This document shows, in pieces, positions 1,379 to 57,166 of a stretch of 64,000 bases of DNA (the stretch's first letter is position 1; the number at the start of each line of letters is the position of its first letter). The stretch is from the NCBI GenBank assembly GCA_041862515.1, contig JBGVTJ010000241.1:1685-65684 (forward strand). Reading direction: 5' to 3'. This DNA comes from Thermodesulfobacteriota bacterium. Its GTDB lineage: Bacteria; Desulfobacterota; BSN033; WVXP01; G020346125. The notes under the pieces are model-generated. The model was given only the letters and a program-made list of their open reading frames with translations, searched no databases and was not told the origin of the DNA. The translations under genes and the position numbers were made by a program.

Positions 1379-2713
1379 ATGAAAAAAAAGAGAACGAGGG
1401 GACCCGTAAGGGTTATAATCATGGGGGCGGCAGGGAGGGATTTTCACAACTTCAACGTCTGCTTCCGGGATCGGGAGGAGTACCGGGTCGTTGCCTTCAC
1501 GGCAGCACAGATCCCCAACATAGAGGGGAGGTGTTATCCGGCTGAGTTAGCGGGGGGACTTTACCCAGAAGGAATTCCGATCTACTCGGAATCGGAGCTC
1601 GTTTCCCTGGTCTGTTCGGAGTCCGTTGACTTGGTGGTCTTTTCCTATAGCGACGTCTCCTATGTAGACCTCATGCACCACGAAGCCGAGGTGAGCGCCG
1701 CGGGCGCCGATTTCATGATGTTGGGGGTCGCTCATACCCAATTGGAGGCCAGGGTACCCGTTGTCTCCGTGGGAGCGGTAAGAACCGGGTGTGGCAAGAG
1801 TCAAACCACCCGGAGGATATGCGACATCCTGGCCCAAAAGGGCAAAACCGTGGTAGTTGTTCGCCACCCCATGGCATATGGAGACCTTGTCCGCCAAAGG
1901 GTCCAGCGGTTTGCGAGCCGAGAGGATTTCGACCGTTTTCACTGCACCATCGAGGAGCGAGAGGAATATGAACCCCATATTGAAAGAGGCTCGGTCGTAT
2001 ACGCGGGTGTCGATTATGAGGAAATTCTCTCACGAGCTCAGGAGGAGGCGGATATCCTCGTATGGGACGGAGGAAACAACGATACACCCTTTTTCAAACC
2101 TACAGTTCACATCGTGCTCGTCGATCCCCACAGGCCAGGACACGAACTCCGGTATTATCCGGGGGAAACCAATATGCGCCTTGCTGACGCGGTGGTGATC
2201 AATAAAGTCGATACGGTGGATCCCCGAAATCTGGATCGAATGAGGGATAACATCCGACGCGTTAACTCCAAGGCTGTGGTCATTTACGCTGCTTCACCCG
2301 TATCTGTTGAAGATCCCTCCCTCATTTCGGGGAAGAGGGTCCTCGTTATCGAGGATGGACCGACGGTGACCCATGGGGAGATGCCCTATGGTGCAGGGGT
2401 TGTGGCAGCTCAGAAATTTGGTGCCAGGGACTTGGTGGACGCCAGGCCATTCGCGGTGGGGAGCCTGCGGGAGACTTTTGAGAAGTATCCCCATTTGGAA
2501 AAGGTTCTTCCGGCGGTTGGATATAGCACCGAACAGGTCGAGGAATTGGAAGCCACCATCAACGCGACGGAATGTGATTTGGTGGTTAGCGCCACCCCGG
2601 TCGACCTGTCCAGGTTGATTACGATCGGCAAGCCGTTGATAAGGGTTCGATATGAATACGAGGGGATCGGCCATCCCACGTTGGAAGATGTACTCGTCCC
2701 TGTATTGAAATAG
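1379..2713 (+). CDS. P-loop protein resembling cyclic 2,3-diphosphoglycerate synthetase
   Basis: 444-aa ORF with Walker A-like GCGKSQTT and Walker B-like WDGGNND; resemblance to the cDPG synthetase family is from memory, not verified; an alternative start is at 1421. Confidence 0.4.
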   Translation: MKKKRTRGPVRVIIMGAAGRDFHNFNVCFRDREEYRVVAFTAAQIPNIEGRCYPAELAGGLYPEGIPIYSESELVSLVCSESVDLVVFSYSDVSYVDLMHHEAEVSAAGADFMMLGVAHTQLEARVPVVSVGAVRTGCGKSQTTRRICDILAQKGKTVVVVRHPMAYGDLVRQRVQRFASREDFDRFHCTIEEREEYEPHIERGSVVYAGVDYEEILSRAQEEADILVWDGGNNDTPFFKPTVHIVLVDPHRPGHELRYYPGETNMRLADAVVINKVDTVDPRNLDRMRDNIRRVNSKAVVIYAASPVSVEDPSLISGKRVLVIEDGPTVTHGEMPYGAGVVAAQKFGARDLVDARPFAVGSLRETFEKYPHLEKVLPAVGYSTEQVEELEATINATECDLVVSATPVDLSRLITIGKPLIRVRYEYEGIGHPTLEDVLVPVLK

Positions 2714-2729
2714 ATGTTTTTAGCGAAAG

Positions 2730-2935
2730 TCTTGAGTACTTCATTCTCCCTTCACATCAATGCCTCCGAAGTGACCCTTCTAGGGTCCGCAGGCGGGGAA
2801 TACTTGCCCCTTCAGGCCTCTAAAGGGCCGGCCTTCCCCTTTCCTTCGGCTCTGCTCAGGACAAGCTCTGCTTACCCTCGGTGGGTACCCTACTTCTCCA
2901 GCAGACTGCGCTCAGGGACAACGGAGCACTCAAGA
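2730..2935 (+). ncRNA. Copy A of a ~210-nt structured repeat element (candidate structured RNA) closed by a ~20-bp terminal helix
   Basis: Core is strongly similar to the minus-strand copy at 55681..55910; a compensatory base-pair change occurs in an internal hairpin (GGCC-loop-GGCC versus AGCC-loop-GGCT); terminal helix tcttgagtac / gcactcaaga. Confidence 0.45.
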
Positions 2936-2961
2936 GAACTAAAGAAACCAAACAAACAAAA

Positions 2962-2994
2962 TAAACGAGATAAACCATCTAAACGTTCTAAACG
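2962..2994 (+). promoter_or_regulatory. Four direct TAAAC(G/C) repeats with exact 9-nt spacing just upstream of the aminotransferase RBS
   Basis: TAAACG at 2962, TAAACC at 2971, TAAACG at 2980 and 2989; the RBS GAGGAG and the ATG at 3006 follow. Confidence 0.25.
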
Positions 2995-3005
2995 AGGAGA
3001 TTGCC

Positions 3006-12444: not shown

Positions 12445-13101
12445 ATGCCCGATAAGCGGAAATTTTCTCGCTTTCCCGTGACGGAAACGGTTATTTGCTC
12501 CCGTTATGGGAGAGAGGTGACCATGCGAACCCTAGATATCAGTCTTGGAGGACTGAAACTAGAGGCCAATTTCGATCTAAGGGTTGGTGAGTCCATGATC
12601 TTTTCAATTTTTACCAATAACACGAGAATAAATTGCAAGGGAAAGATCCTTAAAATAGAAGAATTTGGAAATAAGGTTCAAGCCAGGTTGTGTTTCGCTC
12701 CACCCTCGGACTGGGAATATGGGAAACTGTCTGATTATCTAAACGGCCTTTCTCGGAGACCCTTCCAAAGACGGGTAGTTGGTGACCCGGCTCTATTGCT
12801 TCGGAGAGCACTCAGGCGTGCAATGATGAAGGGAGGAAAGTGGGTAAAAAATATTTTCGACGGAAGAGAAGATGAGAAGCTGGAGCAGGTGAATTCATGG
12901 TTGGAATTACTGCCGGATATGGAGAGAACGGTGATTACCCTTCGTTTTGGTTTGGACGGGGAGGATCCTCTCACATCGGAATCCATAGGGAAACGCTTTG
13001 GCTTGCCCCCGGAAAGGACTCGTCAAATCGAAACGGAGGCCATAGAGAAACTCCGAAAGATCAGCAAAAAGAAAGAGATCTACTTGGATGATATAATCTG
13101 A
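12445..13101 (+). CDS. PilZ domain fused to a sigma-70 region 4 (ECF-type HTH) DNA-binding domain
   Basis: PilZ motifs RKFSR (RxxxR) and DISLGG (DxSxxG) at the N-terminus; C-terminal ERTVITLRFGLDGEDPLTSESIGKRFGLPPERTRQIETEAIEKLRK is a typical sigma-70 region 4; RBS AGGAGG. Confidence 0.7.
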   Translation: MPDKRKFSRFPVTETVICSRYGREVTMRTLDISLGGLKLEANFDLRVGESMIFSIFTNNTRINCKGKILKIEEFGNKVQARLCFAPPSDWEYGKLSDYLNGLSRRPFQRRVVGDPALLLRRALRRAMMKGGKWVKNIFDGREDEKLEQVNSWLELLPDMERTVITLRFGLDGEDPLTSESIGKRFGLPPERTRQIETEAIEKLRKISKKKEIYLDDII

Positions 13102-24403: not shown

Positions 24404-24805
24404 CTATTGGGGTTTAACGGAATTACGGAGCTTCTTGAGCTCTGTAAGGGGCATTTTTGTGCCCTTTGTTTCTCCAGTATCCAGTACCAGTATGTGATAT
24501 CGTTCATGAGAAAACACCCTTGCCGCTTCCCTTGGATACCTCATGGAGTGATTCTCTCGTGGGTCCCAACCGGGCAAGACTAATCCCTTCTTGCTCACCC
24601 TTCTTCCGCACATTACGATCGGGGCGGGGGCAACGATTTCCTCCAGAAAATCATGAAACTTCAGCCGAAGTTCTGTTGACAACCGCGGTAAGAGGTGGTA
24701 GCCCATAGGAGGTTTGTTGAGAAATTGGTATTTCGGTGCGCTCATTTTTTTGGGGATTTTCCTCTCTCCTGACAGGACCAAATCCGATAACCCGAGAAAT
24801 TGCAT
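24404..24805 (-). CDS. Hypothetical protein
   Basis: 133-aa ORF with no recognisable family; true start uncertain. Confidence 0.3.
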
Positions 24806-26819: not shown

Positions 26820-26894
26820 GAACTTCCCCTGAAGTCGATTACCAGTCAGTTAGCTCAGGGACATCGGGCTCCTTCATAGAGTCACAAAACCCCT

Positions 26895-27091
26895 GAGATC
26901 TCTGAAAAACTGAGAAAAATGAGCTCTGAGCGCGAATTAAGATTTTTTCGGTAACCATTCTGAGTGAAGCGAAACGACCGCAAATTCAATGTTTGAGCCG
27001 AAAAGGCGAGTTTTGAATTTGCAGTGAAGCGAACGTTAGAATGGTTGGAAAAATATTTTGAGCACCGAAGAGCGATCTTTTCAGAGATCTC
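26895..27091. repeat. MITE-like dispersed repeat (family 1), complete copy with outer inverted ends gagatctctgaaaa ... ttttcagagatctc
   Basis: Near-identical reverse complement of 50862..51031. Confidence 0.55.
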
Positions 27092-27159
27092 CCCCCCACA
27101 TTTGACATCTCCCTGAAACCATACTATTATACGCCTCGGTCCAAGTCAAGCGCTATTCA

Positions 27160-52196: not shown

Positions 52197-52808
52197 TCAT
52201 ACCCTCCTGAAGATCCCGATGACCTTACCCAGAATTTGAAAACCCCTGTCCCCCTCCCTCACCGTAACCGCCTCCCATGCCTCGTTGTCTGGTTTGAGGA
52301 GCACCTCGTCCCCTTTGAGAAAGAATCGTTTCACCGTTGCCTCGTCATCGATCAGGGCGACGATCACATCGCCGTTATCGGCGGAGGGTTGACAGCGAAT
52401 CAAGACGTAATCTCCCGGGAGAATATAGGGAGACATGCTCTCCCCCTTCGCCCGCAACAAGAAGACCTCTTTCCCCTCTGCCCAATCCCGTGCTAAGGGA
52501 ACGACTTCCTCGATATTTTCCACGGCCAGGGTAGGTTTTCCGGCCGCCACCCTTCCCAAGACGGGAACCTCGCGAATGGAAATCCCAGGCCTCCTTCCGG
52601 TGAAATCCAGGATCTCGATGCCACGGGATTTGGTTTGCCTCCGCCTCAGGTATCCCTTCCTTTCCAGGGCTTTGAGGTGATCGAAGGCTGCCCTGGGATA
52701 GATGTCGAAATACCGGCCGATCTCCCTCACGGAGGGAGGGTAACCGCTTTCCAGGGTGAACTCCTTTACGAAATCCAGAATCTCTCTCTGCCGAGGGGTT
52801 AGATTCAT
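52197..52808 (-). CDS. lexA: LexA repressor (S24 peptidase with N-terminal wHTH)
   Basis: REILDFV...PPSVREIG HTH; cleavage and catalytic motifs VAAG, GESM (Ser), VKRF (Lys); start at the ATG at 52808 with RBS GGAGG. Confidence 0.9.
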   Translation of the reverse strand: MNLTPRQREILDFVKEFTLESGYPPSVREIGRYFDIYPRAAFDHLKALERKGYLRRRQTKSRGIEILDFTGRRPGISIREVPVLGRVAAGKPTLAVENIEEVVPLARDWAEGKEVFLLRAKGESMSPYILPGDYVLIRCQPSADNGDVIVALIDDEATVKRFFLKGDEVLLKPDNEAWEAVTVREGDRGFQILGKVIGIFRRV

Positions 52809-52835
52809 TGCTTTTCCTCCCTTTTCCCCAAAGAT

Positions 52836-52853
52836 ACTATACATATGTTTAGT
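52836..52853. promoter_or_regulatory. Candidate LexA operator (SOS box): 16/18 palindrome ACTATACATATGTTTAGT, Cheo-box-like core ACATATGT
   Basis: Lies 28-45 nt upstream of the lexA ATG; palindromicity read directly from the sequence. Confidence 0.4.
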
Positions 52854-53048
52854 TGTCAAGGGAAAAATTTAGTGGACTTTCCCCAACATTTTGGGAGGTG
52901 GTGAGGTAAGTTATTGAAAAACAATGATAAACAAATAAAAAGAAGTGGAAATGGAGGTTTCTCCTATGGTAGAGGAGTTTCTGAAGCTTCCTGAGATTTA
53001 CAAGGAGTATTTTTGTAACTTGGTGATCATATGGCAAATTTTACTTTT

Positions 53049-53282
53049 CATAAGTGAACACCGTTGTCCCCTCGGTTGCTCACGGTCTGTTGCCTTAATT
53101 TCCTTTCGCTCACTGAAAAGAATTGTGGACAATTCTAGAGTTCGCTTCACTAAGAATGGTTAACCAAAATTCTTTCATGTTCCCTCCAGGGAACCAGGGC
53201 AACGGCCTGTTTCGACGTTACCCTTCTCAAGCAAATTTGGCTCATGGACAACGCTGTTCGCCCAGAAACTCAGGAAACTCCT
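53049..53282 (+). repeat. Chimeric element C: terminal-helix ends of structured-element family 2 (same ends as the 55681..55910 copy) enclosing a fragment of MITE family 1 (53107..53176)
   Basis: 5' cataagtgaacaccgttgtccc and 3' ggacaacgctgttcgcccagaaactcaggaaactcc match the ends of copy B; the core differs. Confidence 0.4.
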
Positions 53283-53392
53283 GAAAGCGTTTCACTTGAC
53301 AGAGTGAAATAAAATCTGGTATGTGGTTTCTCGGTTGAAAACCTTTCCATTATCGAACCATAATGCATGAGATCCAATGGAGGAACGGTATT

Positions 53393-53818
53393 ATGTTTAA
53401 GAGCATCTTGGTACCTCTGGATGGGTCGGAAGTCGCCGAGACCATCCTTCCCTATGTGGAAGATTTGGCGGCTACCCACAAGGCGAGGATCGTTCTGCTT
53501 CGAGTTGCCCTGGCTCACACCCTCCCCGGACAAGACGAGATAAAGGCTGAGGTTGAGGCGATCCGTGAAGCTGAGGAATACCTCAAGGGGGTTGAGGAAA
53601 GGTTGAAAAAGAAGGACTTCGACGTAGAATCCCACGTGAGGTATGGTAAGGGGGCTGAGGAAATCATTGATTTCTGCCAGGAACCCAATATCGATGCCAT
53701 CGCCATGTTCACCCATGGGCGAACTGGAATAGGCAGGTGGTTGTTGGGGAGCGTGGCGGAAAAAGTAGTTCGGCATTGCCCCATACCGACCCTGCTTTTC
53801 CGGCCGAAAGGGCAATAG
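53393..53818 (+). CDS. Universal stress protein (UspA family)
   Basis: ILVPLDGSE start, the HGRTG.GR...GSVAEKV ATP-binding motif; RBS GGAGG precedes the ATG at 53393. Confidence 0.8.
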   Translation: MFKSILVPLDGSEVAETILPYVEDLAATHKARIVLLRVALAHTLPGQDEIKAEVEAIREAEEYLKGVEERLKKKDFDVESHVRYGKGAEEIIDFCQEPNIDAIAMFTHGRTGIGRWLLGSVAEKVVRHCPIPTLLFRPKGQ

Positions 53819-55644: not shown

Positions 55645-55673
55645 TCTATATCTTAAAAGCAAGCATCTGTCAA
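55645..55673 (-). promoter_or_regulatory. Sigma-70-like promoter candidate for the DUF47-pit operon (TTGACA-17-TATAGA on the minus strand)
   Basis: Hexamers read on the reverse strand; lies between element copy B and the DUF47 start. Confidence 0.35.
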
Positions 55674-55680
55674 TTAATAA

Positions 55681-55910
55681 CAATGCTGGAGTTTCCTGAG
55701 TTTCTGGGCGAACACCGTTGTCCATGAACGTAAATTGCTGGAGAAGCTGGGGACCCATCCAGGGTGAGCAGGCTTCGACGTGAGCTCAGCCGAACGTAAG
55801 GGGAAAGCCAGCCCTTTAGAGGCTGGAAGGGGTAAGTATTCCCCGCCTGCGAACCCCGAAAGGGTCACTTCGGAAGCACTGAAGCGAAGGGACAGCGGTG
55901 TTCACTTATG
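55681..55910 (-). ncRNA. Copy B of the ~210-nt structured element, with a 14-bp terminal helix and its own promoter-like sequence (TTGTAA-16-TATATT at 55919..55946)
   Basis: Core homologous to copy A (2730..2935) with compensatory changes; terminal helix gugaacaccgcugucc / ggacaacgguguuc. Confidence 0.45.
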
Positions 55911-56129
55911 AAAAATAAAATATACTTTGTAATCAAAAGGTTACAAAAATATTCCGCATAAAAATCAGGAAACTCCAAATAACAATGGTCTTGTTACGGA
56001 AGAATATTTTTGATTGACAAACAGTTTTTTCGACCTCATTGTATGAAGGTCGTCTCCGTTGCAATGATCCAACTCCTGTATTGCTTTAATAATCTGATCT
56101 CGAGTGAAGAATCTCAGAGGAAGTTCGAT

Positions 56130-57166
56130 ATGAGAGGGGTAAAAATCATCCAATACGGGGTCGGTGCAATGGGTTCTCTGATGGTAAAGACGGCCTTAAA
56201 GAGAACGCGCCTGCGATTCGTGGGGGGCATCGATCAGGGGAAAAAGGGGGGGATGGATTTGGGAGCGGCGATGGGTCTCCACGGTAAATTGGGGATTTCG
56301 ATTTCGGGGGAACCCCAAACCTTATTGAGCAATACCGATGCGGATATCGTTCTCCATGCCACCGCATCTTTTTTCGATGAGATATACCCCCAAAATCGCC
56401 ATGGCCATTGAAGCGCGCATGAGCGTCATCTCCATTTGCGAGGAGTTAGCCTATCCTTGGCACCGAAATCCCGAACTTGCCAATAAGATCGACCGGCTGG
56501 CAGAGGAAAATGGTGTGATAGTGTTGGGACCCGGGGTAAACCCAGGATTTTCCTCGATACCCTCGTCATCCATTGCACCGGGTTATGTGCCGAAGTCAAA
56601 AGGATTACGGCCAAGCGGATGCGCGATTCTTCCCCTTATGGCCTAAGGTTCTGGATCGCCGAGGACTGGGGCTCTCCTTTGACGAGTGGAAAAAAAGGGT
56701 ATCTGAAAAGAGGATAACCGGCCATATCGGGTCCCATGAATCGATGAGGATGATCGGGGCCAGTTTGGGGTGGGATTTGGATGAAACCGTTGAAATGCCG
56801 ATTGAACCCATCATTGCCGAGGTTAGCATTGAACTCCCTTATGTGAGGATCGAAAGGGGGACCATATGCGAATATAACCAGAAGGCCTATGCCCTCATGG
56901 CGCGCGGGAAGGTGATTCTCTTTGAGAATGAAGGAAGGGTATATGGGGAGGGTGAAGAACATCATACGGAAGATTCCGTGCATATCGAGGGGAATCCCGA
57001 GATCAAGCTCACCATAAGGCCGGGACTATCGGGCGACGTTAGCAGCTCATCCATGGCCGTCAACGCCATCGCACAGGTTATGGCTACGCGACCCGGGTTG
57101 GTCAGCATGAAGGATCTCCCCAATCCATCAGCCCTGATGGACACAAGGAGATACTTTCACCATTGA
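56130..57166 (+). pseudogene. DapB-like NAD(P)H amine dehydrogenase (2,4-diaminopentanoate dehydrogenase family) interrupted by three 1-nt indels at homopolymer runs; probably intact in vivo
   Basis: Family blocks (GVGAMGS..., NGVIVLGPGVNPGF, FLDTLVIHCTGLCAEV, ITGHIGSHES, EGNPEIKLTIRPGLSGDVSSSSMAVNAIAQVM...PGLVSMKDLP) are spread over three frames; frame switches at the C5 run 56387-56391, the T4 run 56548-56551 and the C4 run 56632-56635. Confidence 0.7.

Follow-up and report, generated by a model that had tools for sequence, protein, structure and literature searches.

Is a segment of about 200 nt that keeps its fold while its sequence drifts an RNA in its own right, or a part of something larger? 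The question is raised by a 64,000-nt stretch of contig JBGVTJ010000241.1 (positions 1,685 to 65,684 of the forward strand; assembly GCA_041862515.1) from a Thermodesulfobacteriota bacterium, hereafter the window. Two such segments, copy A (+ strand, ~2736-2929) and copy B (- strand, ~55903-55710), lie where a preliminary description had placed them; they are 82% identical over ~200 nt and share an 18-mer, CGCAGGCGGGGAATACTT, that occurs exactly twice in the window against 0.01 occurrences expected. That description regarded them as a functional RNA rather than a DNA repeat. Our own reading, to which we assign a probability of about 85%, is that the segment is the interior of a MITE (miniature inverted-repeat transposable element), bounded by terminal inverted repeats (TIRs), which has a parent insertion sequence (IS) of ~1.45 kb and is placed near promoters. 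The observations behind it are the anatomy of the element, its copy number, its target duplications, its partner IS, and the statistics of target and orientation. As worded, the RNA claim finds no support, the segment being the inside of a multi-copy mobile element with TIRs, flanking target-site duplications and a transposase-encoding relative. The preliminary description had itself named a match to a known TIR transposon remnant with no transcript as a finding that would speak against an RNA, and TIRs, target duplications and a cognate IS are essentially what we find.

Anatomy and distribution of the element

When copies are aligned with longer flanks, their similarity reaches past the segment first described on both sides and ends at TIRs of 19 bp (left 5'-CTGGAGTTTCCTGAnTTTT, right AAAACTCAGGAAACTCCAG-3'). 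The full unit measures 265-293 bp and consists of a left terminal repeat, an A+T-rich segment, a hairpin module closed by a helix that we call P1, and a right terminal repeat. The long terminal helix reported for copies A and B is therefore real, with 12 of its 15 pairs covarying, but it is P1, an inverted repeat inside the element and not its end. The outer TIRs of the element, its target duplications, its true boundaries and two further copies in the window had been overlooked. A perfect target duplication of 8-10 bp flanks 21 of 33 complete copies, and nine more have one mismatch or a 7-bp match. The A+T-rich segment separates the left tip from P1, and its best-conserved positions read YAANNNNTTGATW, which is complementary to the consensus for integration host factor (IHF), WATCAANNNNTTR; this IHF-like match, at positions 36-48, is perfect in 16 of 28 complete copies and one mismatch off in six more. 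The element has no coding capacity, holding only mechanical open reading frames (ORFs), and reaches up to ~530 bp where it carries other cargo.

A scan of genomes, one per species, with a degenerate form of the core as query recovered 64 loci in about a dozen metagenome-assembled genomes (MAGs), labelled Syntrophobacterales, Desulfobacterales, Thermodesulfobacteriota and 'Pseudomonadota'. Eight of these are on the 2.07-Mb chromosome CP070774.1, and 16-17 are in two fragmented MAGs. Runs of N, probably masked stretches, abut or cut family copies on CP070774.1 (L005, ~1730-1830; L051, ~2480-2580), so that the counts for this nominally complete chromosome are lower bounds. Many loci lie at the ends of contigs, as is typical of repeats at which assemblies break. 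With the terminal repeat as query, a scan of metagenomes gave at least 120 loci besides the 64 from genomes, and flanks are unrelated from copy to copy. A scan of viral contigs for the core returned no match, and a blastn search of a plasmid collection with the whole MITE returned only one 27-nt chance match.

Many further short elements (170-530 bp) end in these terminal repeats and have unrelated interiors; one of them (L146) is an internally deleted IS. Different interiors thus occupy one shell in a modular fashion, as seen in a further window copy (copy C) and in L043, L097, L128, L153 and L178; one sub-family has a different 3' half and some copies carry extra palindromic inserts. The MITE at L153 (4328-4788) has its type-I hairpin core in reverse orientation within the shell and broken up by other sequence, which suggests recombination between the arms of P1.

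A partner insertion sequence encodes a putative DDE transposase

Nineteen of the metagenome loci are full-length elements of 1447-1470 bp with the same 19-bp TIRs, five of them flanked by a perfect 8-9 bp duplication. Each contains a single ORF of 421-453 amino acids, shortened in a few. Short elements that share their ends with a 1.45-kb IS represent the standard relationship between a MITE and its IS. The 64 genome loci, searched likewise, yielded no autonomous element, as none of their TIR pairs 0.7-5 kb apart had a duplication.

The encoded protein gave no Pfam match at default settings. All 18 of the transposases tested do match the NCBIfam models for IS701, IS4 and IS1634, the best at E = 1e-13, at scores below the curated cut-offs, and 12 of the 18 match Pfam DDE_Tnp_1 (best E = 3e-4). 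The motifs AIDPGD, IDRGGD and YLxRWKCDESxRYIK are visible; YLARWKCDESYRYIK, read directly from the sequences, fits Y-x2-R-x3-D-x6-K with a glutamate one residue later, and the last motif appears to resemble the YREK signature of IS4-type enzymes. We consider the protein to be a probable transposase of the DDE (aspartate-aspartate-glutamate) type, distantly IS4/IS701/IS1634-like. A homology search found more than 4,380 relatives at E <= 1e-5. Among the matches listed, all those with a source name are called 'hypothetical protein', and precomputed Pfam domains are given for none; sources are named for few, and these are MAGs of Thermodesulfobacteriota, Thermodesulfovibrionia and Nitrospirota, while most of the listed relatives (P0001-P0120) lie on contigs of ~1.5 kb. 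This looks like an IS family that is missing from current annotation models. Sequence and profile searches of the PDB with the transposase gave no match, and tblastn against the plasmid collection gave a single weak match to a Deinococcus 'transposase' (25% identity).

A second terminal-repeat motif (GAGTTTCCTGAGTTTTT or AGATTCCTGAGTAAAAT) was observed ~95-115 nt inside the left end of the IS, just before the transposase start codon and with a TTGAC(C) hexamer ahead of it, in L092, L075, L130, L160, L168 and others. The transposase may bind there as at a second site, or the motif may serve autoregulation.

Several other classes of element were considered and set aside. IS110 bridge RNA, IS200/IS605 omega RNA and retron msr/msd were dropped given the TIRs, the 8-10 bp duplications and the DDE-like partner; a REP/BIME palindrome or one derived from IS200/IS605 was rejected on the same TIRs and duplications and on a partner that is DDE-like and not HUH.

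Copies tend to lie at a near-constant distance upstream of -35-like hexamers

For the analysis of insertion sites each MITE was oriented as copy A, which is also the direction in which the IS reads its transposase gene. The trinucleotide TTG is found at an offset of 10-14 from the right end in 36 of 44 MITE copies; left ends reach 13 of 43, and control offsets 4-6 of 44. The longer TTGAC is seen on the right in 22 of 44 copies, on the left in 3 of 43, and not once among the controls. Full-length IS show the same pattern beyond the end that carries the 3' end of the transposase gene (tnp) in 16 of 19 cases. MITE and IS alike have one end 11-14 nt upstream of TTGACA, usually the -35 box in the promoter of a gene or tRNA that points the same way. 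A sigma-70-like -35/-10 pair with its -35 at that position is present in 16 of 44 MITE flanks, where shuffled sequences predict 0.74, and in 5 of 18 IS flanks, where they predict 0.31. On the same strand there follows either a tRNA gene, single or in a cluster (L004, L050), or an ORF preceded by a Shine-Dalgarno sequence, and the distance is commonly 70-180 nt. All three non-truncated copies in the window (B, C and D) have TTGACA 11-12 nt past their right end. Integration is site-selective and mostly orientation-specific. Two loci, L050 and L009, show a site that has been used twice: a newer copy has duplicated the very 8 bp that border an older, truncated copy on its right. Because the target duplication sits between element and hexamer, the hexamer is host DNA and not cargo of the element. 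We found no published description of the TIR sequence or of an IS that targets -35 hexamers.

These features could be produced as follows. The MITE would be moved in trans by the 421-453 amino acid DDE transposase of the ~1.45-kb IS, presumably with IHF taking part in the reaction. By the statistics above, the staggered cut is placed such that the right end, corresponding to the tnp-3' end of the IS, comes to lie 11-14 nt upstream of TTGACA. The host promoter is left intact, the hexamer being in many cases a real sigma-70-type -35 of the co-oriented gene or tRNA cluster. Either the hexamer itself or proteins bound to the promoter may be recognised by the transposition machinery; we infer that target choice belongs to that machinery because selection alone could hardly produce a spacing that varies so little. 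The bias in orientation may also be mechanistic, because the two ends differ, the IHF-like site being in the left one only.

The same placement bears on a further explanation, that the element is a stand-alone non-coding RNA gene family or a riboswitch-like cis-regulatory leader of the genes downstream. In its favour, both of the copies named in the preliminary description face a downstream gene, and the structure is conserved. In most copies, however, the -35/-10 of the downstream gene comes after the element, which is therefore not a 5' leader; a riboswitch or leader was rejected on this ground. In addition, the genes that follow have no function in common (DUF47/Pit, usp, tRNAs and others), and TIRs, target duplications, dozens of copies beside unrelated genes and tRNAs, and a transposase-encoding relative are foreign to a stand-alone RNA gene. 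We regard this explanation as very improbable. A search against Rfam, which the preliminary description had proposed, matched no family on either strand: nothing in the whole window reached the gathering score, and nothing relevant appeared at E values up to 10 over both copies and both strands. A glycine riboswitch on the opposite strand (E = 3.2) was rejected as being at the level of chance.

Pairing in the hairpin module is maintained by compensatory change

If the segment is the interior of a MITE, why is its structure so well kept? A model was fitted on 43 copies, and 12 more, ascertained by their terminal repeat, served as a replicate. A rod-like structure of seven helices fits the 43-copy alignment: P1, the inner repeat; P2 (TGC/GCA); P3 (GAAGTG/CACTTC, with the variants GAGGTG/CACCTC, GCAGTG/CACTGC and GCGTTG/CAACGC); P4 (ACCC/GGGT); P6 (GCAGG/CCTGC); P6b (GGGGAA/TTCCCC); and P8, the hairpin CCAGCC-TCTAAAG-GGCTGG. 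In these copies 92.9% of cells are paired, changes on both sides occur in 20 of 46 pairs, and compensated cells number 154, where shuffles give 37 ± 6. Covariation scores 0.234, and sliding the partners by 1-3 columns lowers this to 0.045-0.074. Examined without bias, the full set of column pairs again singles out P1, P2, P3 and P8, and two of the covarying helices are long-range, with partners 160-220 alignment columns apart. The 12 replicate copies reproduce the result (447 Watson-Crick cells and 63 compensated cells) and add new variants of P8.

The claim that structure is conserved while sequence drifts thus proves stronger than originally put. The compensatory change noted between copies A and B, GGCC/GGCC against AGCC/GGCT, is equally real and belongs to a series of five forms of P8 (CCAGCC/GGCTGG, CCGGCC/GGCCGG, CCCCGC/GCGGGG, CCCGGC/GCCGGG and CCGCGC/GCGCGG). 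The second pairing proposed, ccgaag with cttcgg, does not generalise: its 3' partner lies in an optional insert of ~25 nt, and across the family it is GAAGTG that pairs with CACTTC. Two features of the data set affect how these numbers are read. P6b and part of P6 are invariant among the 43 copies because the search pattern fixed them, and independent events are fewer than the cell counts suggest because the shuffle ignores relatedness and variation is mostly between sub-families. Nevertheless, pairing is kept across sub-families by compensatory change, and therefore some single-stranded form matters to the lineage.

If it is the stability of a single strand that is kept, the evidence favours the strand opposite to the one chosen in the preliminary description. 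In the orientation used there, the helices contain 77 A·C against 20 G·T cells, leaving aside a loop-closing T·G, and the replicate set contains 30 against 11; this asymmetry is what G·U wobbles on the reverse strand would leave. Unpaired columns have no matching bias (G>A 0.038 and C>T 0.036; T>C 0.073 and A>G 0.094). The reverse complement is also the more stable in 41 of 43 copies, by a mean of 13 kcal/mol, part of which comes from its G-richness. Shuffle-normalised fold z-scores, given for the reverse and then the originally chosen strand, are -6.9 and -5.3 for L039, -4.1 and -2.0 for copy A, and -4.5 and -5.7 for copy B, and so favour the reverse strand in two of the three cases examined.

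Signals for expression of the hairpin were sought among the complete copies, which frame it with neither a conserved promoter of its own nor a terminator-like site. An inward promoter-like site is found in only 9 of 28, at varying positions, and neither sigma-54 nor canonical inward sigma-70 promoters are conserved in the left shell. The sole promoter-like site at a fixed position, in 15 of 28, is on the reverse strand of the left shell (TTATCA-16-TATAAT, with the variants TTATCA/TTATGA-16-TATAAT/TAAAAT) and points outwards, away from the hairpin. It overlaps the IHF-like site; an example is L039 (262-289, - strand), and copy B (~55900-55935) has a weaker version, TTATGA-16-TGTAAT. This site would fire from the left end towards the upstream gene, which is often divergent.

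Two explanations of the conserved pairing have to be weighed, and we rate them about equally, each as unlikely. The first, which is compatible with the MITE reading, is that the hairpin is a functional structured RNA carried as cargo, its helices kept by selection on the RNA: for example a small RNA, an element for RNase processing or stabilisation, or, next to promoters, an insulator or a barrier to transcription. Four covarying helices (two of which are long-range), z-scores of -4 to -7 for the fold, the ~3-4 to 1 excess of A·C over G·T that unpaired columns do not share, and the greater stability of the reverse strand all agree with such an RNA, and MITE-derived small RNAs are known elsewhere (PMC10969869). 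Against this, Rfam has no match on either strand; no conserved promoter drives the reverse strand through the hairpin, no terminator follows, and the one conserved site points away; the interior can be replaced (copy C, L043, L128) or inverted relative to the shell (L153); and the G-richness of the reverse strand accounts for part of the energy difference.

The second explanation is that pairing is kept at the level of DNA, the module being a quasi-palindrome that forms a hairpin or cruciform on transiently single-stranded DNA during replication or transposition. Changes would then arise through template-switch or mismatch correction, or would reflect selection for master copies competent to transpose, without a function for RNA. 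The absence of expression signals is as expected here, and so is the architecture, the whole interior being one rod-like imperfect inverted repeat as in many MITEs. Variation lying mostly between sub-families is the pattern left by sampling a few master copies, and the inverted core of L153 indicates that P1 arms recombine. However, the two long-range covarying helices exceed the distance typical of quasi-palindrome correction, and a cruciform, which uses both strands equally, would not on its own give 3-4 to 1 for A·C over G·T. DDE cut-and-paste transposition of the IS4 type is not known to need internal hairpins, which also counts against this explanation.

With low confidence, we suggest that the hairpin is a structural module needed for, or tolerated by, the propagation of master copies, and it may in addition hinder transcription that enters or leaves the neighbouring promoter. 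A bolder proposal, which we advance tentatively and hold to be less than an even bet, joins these elements: an unannotated promoter-homing family of DDE IS and their MITEs that recognises TTGACA, or the sigma-70/RNA polymerase occupying it, and inserts 11 bp upstream of it in one set orientation, with a hairpin cargo that is functional in single-stranded form, probably as RNA from the strand antisense to that of the preliminary description, and that aids propagation or insulates the promoter.

Several points weigh against the interpretation of the element as a MITE mobilised by this IS. No transposition event or empty site was directly observed, and the sign of mobility is an indirect one, the re-use of sites at L050 and L009. 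The IS copies come from metagenomes and not demonstrably from the genomes that hold the type-I MITEs, and their interiors are without the hairpin module. A tabulated member of the transposase family scores 16-29 bits where the curated NCBIfam cut-offs are 150-250 bits, and an AlphaFold2 model built on a 26-sequence alignment is poor, with a confidence score (pLDDT, predicted local distance difference test) of 50.6. The orientation bias could come in part from selection after insertion and not from mechanism. Lastly, covariation as strong as that in the hairpin is unexpected for a neutral MITE interior and leaves room for a function as RNA.

Copies within the window

The window holds four copies in total, of which B is intact, A and D are decayed, and C has a different interior (Table 1). 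Copy D was found by profile searches only. TIR-like 12-mers at 13054, 20058 and 32270 are inside coding sequence, look like chance matches and were rejected.

Table 1. Family copies in the window and features associated with them.
Feature	Position	Strand	Basis or remark
Copy A, hairpin module (helices P1-P8) of a decayed short-form MITE copy	2736..2929	+	Family alignment; nhmmer E = 1.7e-47
Copy A, left terminal repeat remnant, degenerate, TAGATGTTTTTAGC	2711..2724	+	Weak assignment; overlaps stop codon of upstream gene
Copy A, right terminal repeat, degenerate, AGAACTAAAGAAACCAAAC	2935..2953	+	~12/19 consensus matches
Copy A, optional ~25-nt insert hairpin	2841..2866	+	Alignments; contains the 'cttcgg' of the preliminary description
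Copy B, complete MITE, 293 bp	55686..55978	-	TIR pair and 9-bp target duplication; nhmmer matches to left shell, core and right shell
Copy B, hairpin module (P1-P8)	55710..55903	-	Family alignment
Copy B, left TIR, TTGGAGTTTCCTGATTTTT	55960..55978	-	
Copy B, right TIR, AAACTCAGGAAACTCCAG	55686..55704	-	
Copy B, target-site duplication, first copy, ATAACAATG on + strand	55677..55685		
Copy B, target-site duplication, second copy, ATAACAATG on + strand	55979..55987		
Copy B, IHF-consensus-like site, TAACCTTTTGATT (YAANNNNTTGATW)	55931..55943	-	Positions 36-48 from left tip
Host promoter-like site TTGACA-17-TATAGA of DUF47/Pit operon	55645..55673	-	Sequence; Pfam on downstream genes
Copy C, same shell (TIRs, IHF-like region, P1 arms), different interior	52981..53283	+	nhmmer, left shell E = 4.8e-19, right shell E = 9.7e-14
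TTGACA hexamer upstream of usp	53296..53301	+	12 nt past right end of copy C
Copy D, decayed; left shell, partial core and right TIR AAAATCATGAAACTTCAG recognisable	24427..24664 (approx.)	+	E = 0.002, 8e-6 and 6e-6
TTGACA hexamer	24676..24681	+	11 nt past right end of copy D

Copy A belongs to a short form without the A+T-rich segment and has decayed; its terminal repeats are only weakly recognisable. The left remnant is assigned by its likeness to short-form copies such as L002, in which GGGATGTTTCCTCA is followed directly by the P1 arm; the right shell gives an nhmmer match at 2892-2948 (E = 1.7e-11), and P1, by direct reading, has 3 mismatches in 17 positions. The position given for copy A in the preliminary description is right, directly after a stop codon (2711-2713, ending the ORF at 1379-2713) and before a class-III aminotransferase gene. 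The CA-rich stretch that follows it (2954-3005, +; AAACAAACAAAATAAACGAGATAAACCATCTAAACGTTCTAAACGAGGAG) contains several AAAC(G/A) units and no -35/-10 match; transcription of the upstream gene may run on through the decayed copy into the aminotransferase gene. An exact look-up of this aminotransferase returned no record.

Copy B lies upstream of a pair of genes on the minus strand that Pfam identifies as DUF47/PhoU-like and a Pit phosphate transporter, and the -35 hexamer of their promoter-like site begins 12 nt past its right end. Adjoining it on the other side, a DapB_N-like ORF (56010-56411, +) and a DAP_DH_C ORF (56573-57166, +) are separate; this split 2,4-diaminopentanoate dehydrogenase-like gene may be due to a frameshift, a pseudogene or a mis-set start. 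Copy C is located between divergent genes, also identified with Pfam, for lexA (52197-52859, -) and the universal stress protein usp (53363-53818, +).

A second set of small repeats recurs in these genomes, made up of GCTCAGGGCC...GAAGGGCC hairpins, some of them in tandem, and of AAGAATGGTTAGCCAAAATTCTTTAATG-like blocks. It is present in the window at 26837-27130 (+), where it ends just before a TTGACA-17-TATTAT promoter-like site at ~27102, within copy C (~53090-53210), at L009 (5530-5700), and at L042, L043, L128 and L178; the repeats nest in MITE interiors. The optional insert of ~25 nt, which copies A and B have and most family members lack, looks related to the GCTCAGGGCC...GAAGGGCC repeat as seen in L009, L042 and L043.

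Relation to known systems

The Correia elements of Neisseria (CREE/NEMIS) are likewise small, non-coding and present in many copies, with TIRs and an internal IHF site; they too have promoter-like sequence at an end, form a hairpin in transcripts, lie next to genes and can alter expression (PMC10969869). They differ in length (~100-155 bp), in duplicating a TA dinucleotide and in having no known promoter-specific target, whereas the element described here has 265-293 bp, an 8-10 bp duplication, a long covarying interior and a cognate IS.

Within the IS4 family, IS10/Tn10 and IS50/Tn5 resemble the present IS in repeats that start with CTG, in a target duplication of ~9 bp, in an IHF site inside one end only with inward and outward promoter-like sites overlapping near that end, and in a transposase with a YREK motif, to which the putative YREK-like motif may correspond here. 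In contrast, the hotspot of IS10 is the symmetric NGCTNAGCN, while the target here is an asymmetric TTGACA 2-4 bp beyond the duplication, and the transposase is sub-threshold against the IS4, IS701 and IS1634 models.

The nearest precedent for the mode of insertion is the IS1202 group. These ISAjo2-related elements, of DDE type and with TIRs, are reported to keep a single orientation and a short, fixed spacing from a site bound by protein, dif/pdif, namely 5 bp from the XerC sites (PMC10132070); their transposase belongs to an unrelated family. Tn7 at attTn7 and yeast Ty3 and Ty1 upstream of Pol III genes follow the same 'safe-haven' logic, in which insertion is specific in orientation or position and falls beside essential transcription units, not within them, and several copies of the present element, like Ty3/Ty1, are just upstream of tRNA gene promoters. 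The likeness is in strategy only, since the machineries (TnsABCD; a retroviral-type integrase with TFIIIB) are wholly different. ERIC/IRU and BIME/RIP are also imperfect intergenic palindromes, with IHF sites in RIP, that are often included in neighbouring mRNAs. REP/BIME, however, are without TIRs and target duplications and are moved by HUH (RAYT) enzymes, unlike the present element with its TIRs, duplications and DDE partner.

Implications

A candidate for a new class of RNA is removed by this work, which matters for the mining of non-coding RNAs and for the assembly of these MAGs, whose contigs are broken by the repeat. The strand-asymmetric covariation inside the MITE provides a clean test case for whether a palindrome is maintained at the level of RNA or of DNA. 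Lineages of anaerobic sediment and groundwater (Thermodesulfobacteriota, Nitrospirota and Thermodesulfovibrionia) carry the parent IS family in abundance. A DDE transposon that inserts at a fixed distance upstream of -35 boxes would represent an unusual mode of target selection and, if the promoter-homing proposal is true, a bacterial analogue of safe-haven targeting in the style of Ty3 and Tn7. Such a mode would have consequences for the evolution of promoters in these organisms and might offer a tool for promoter-proximal integration.

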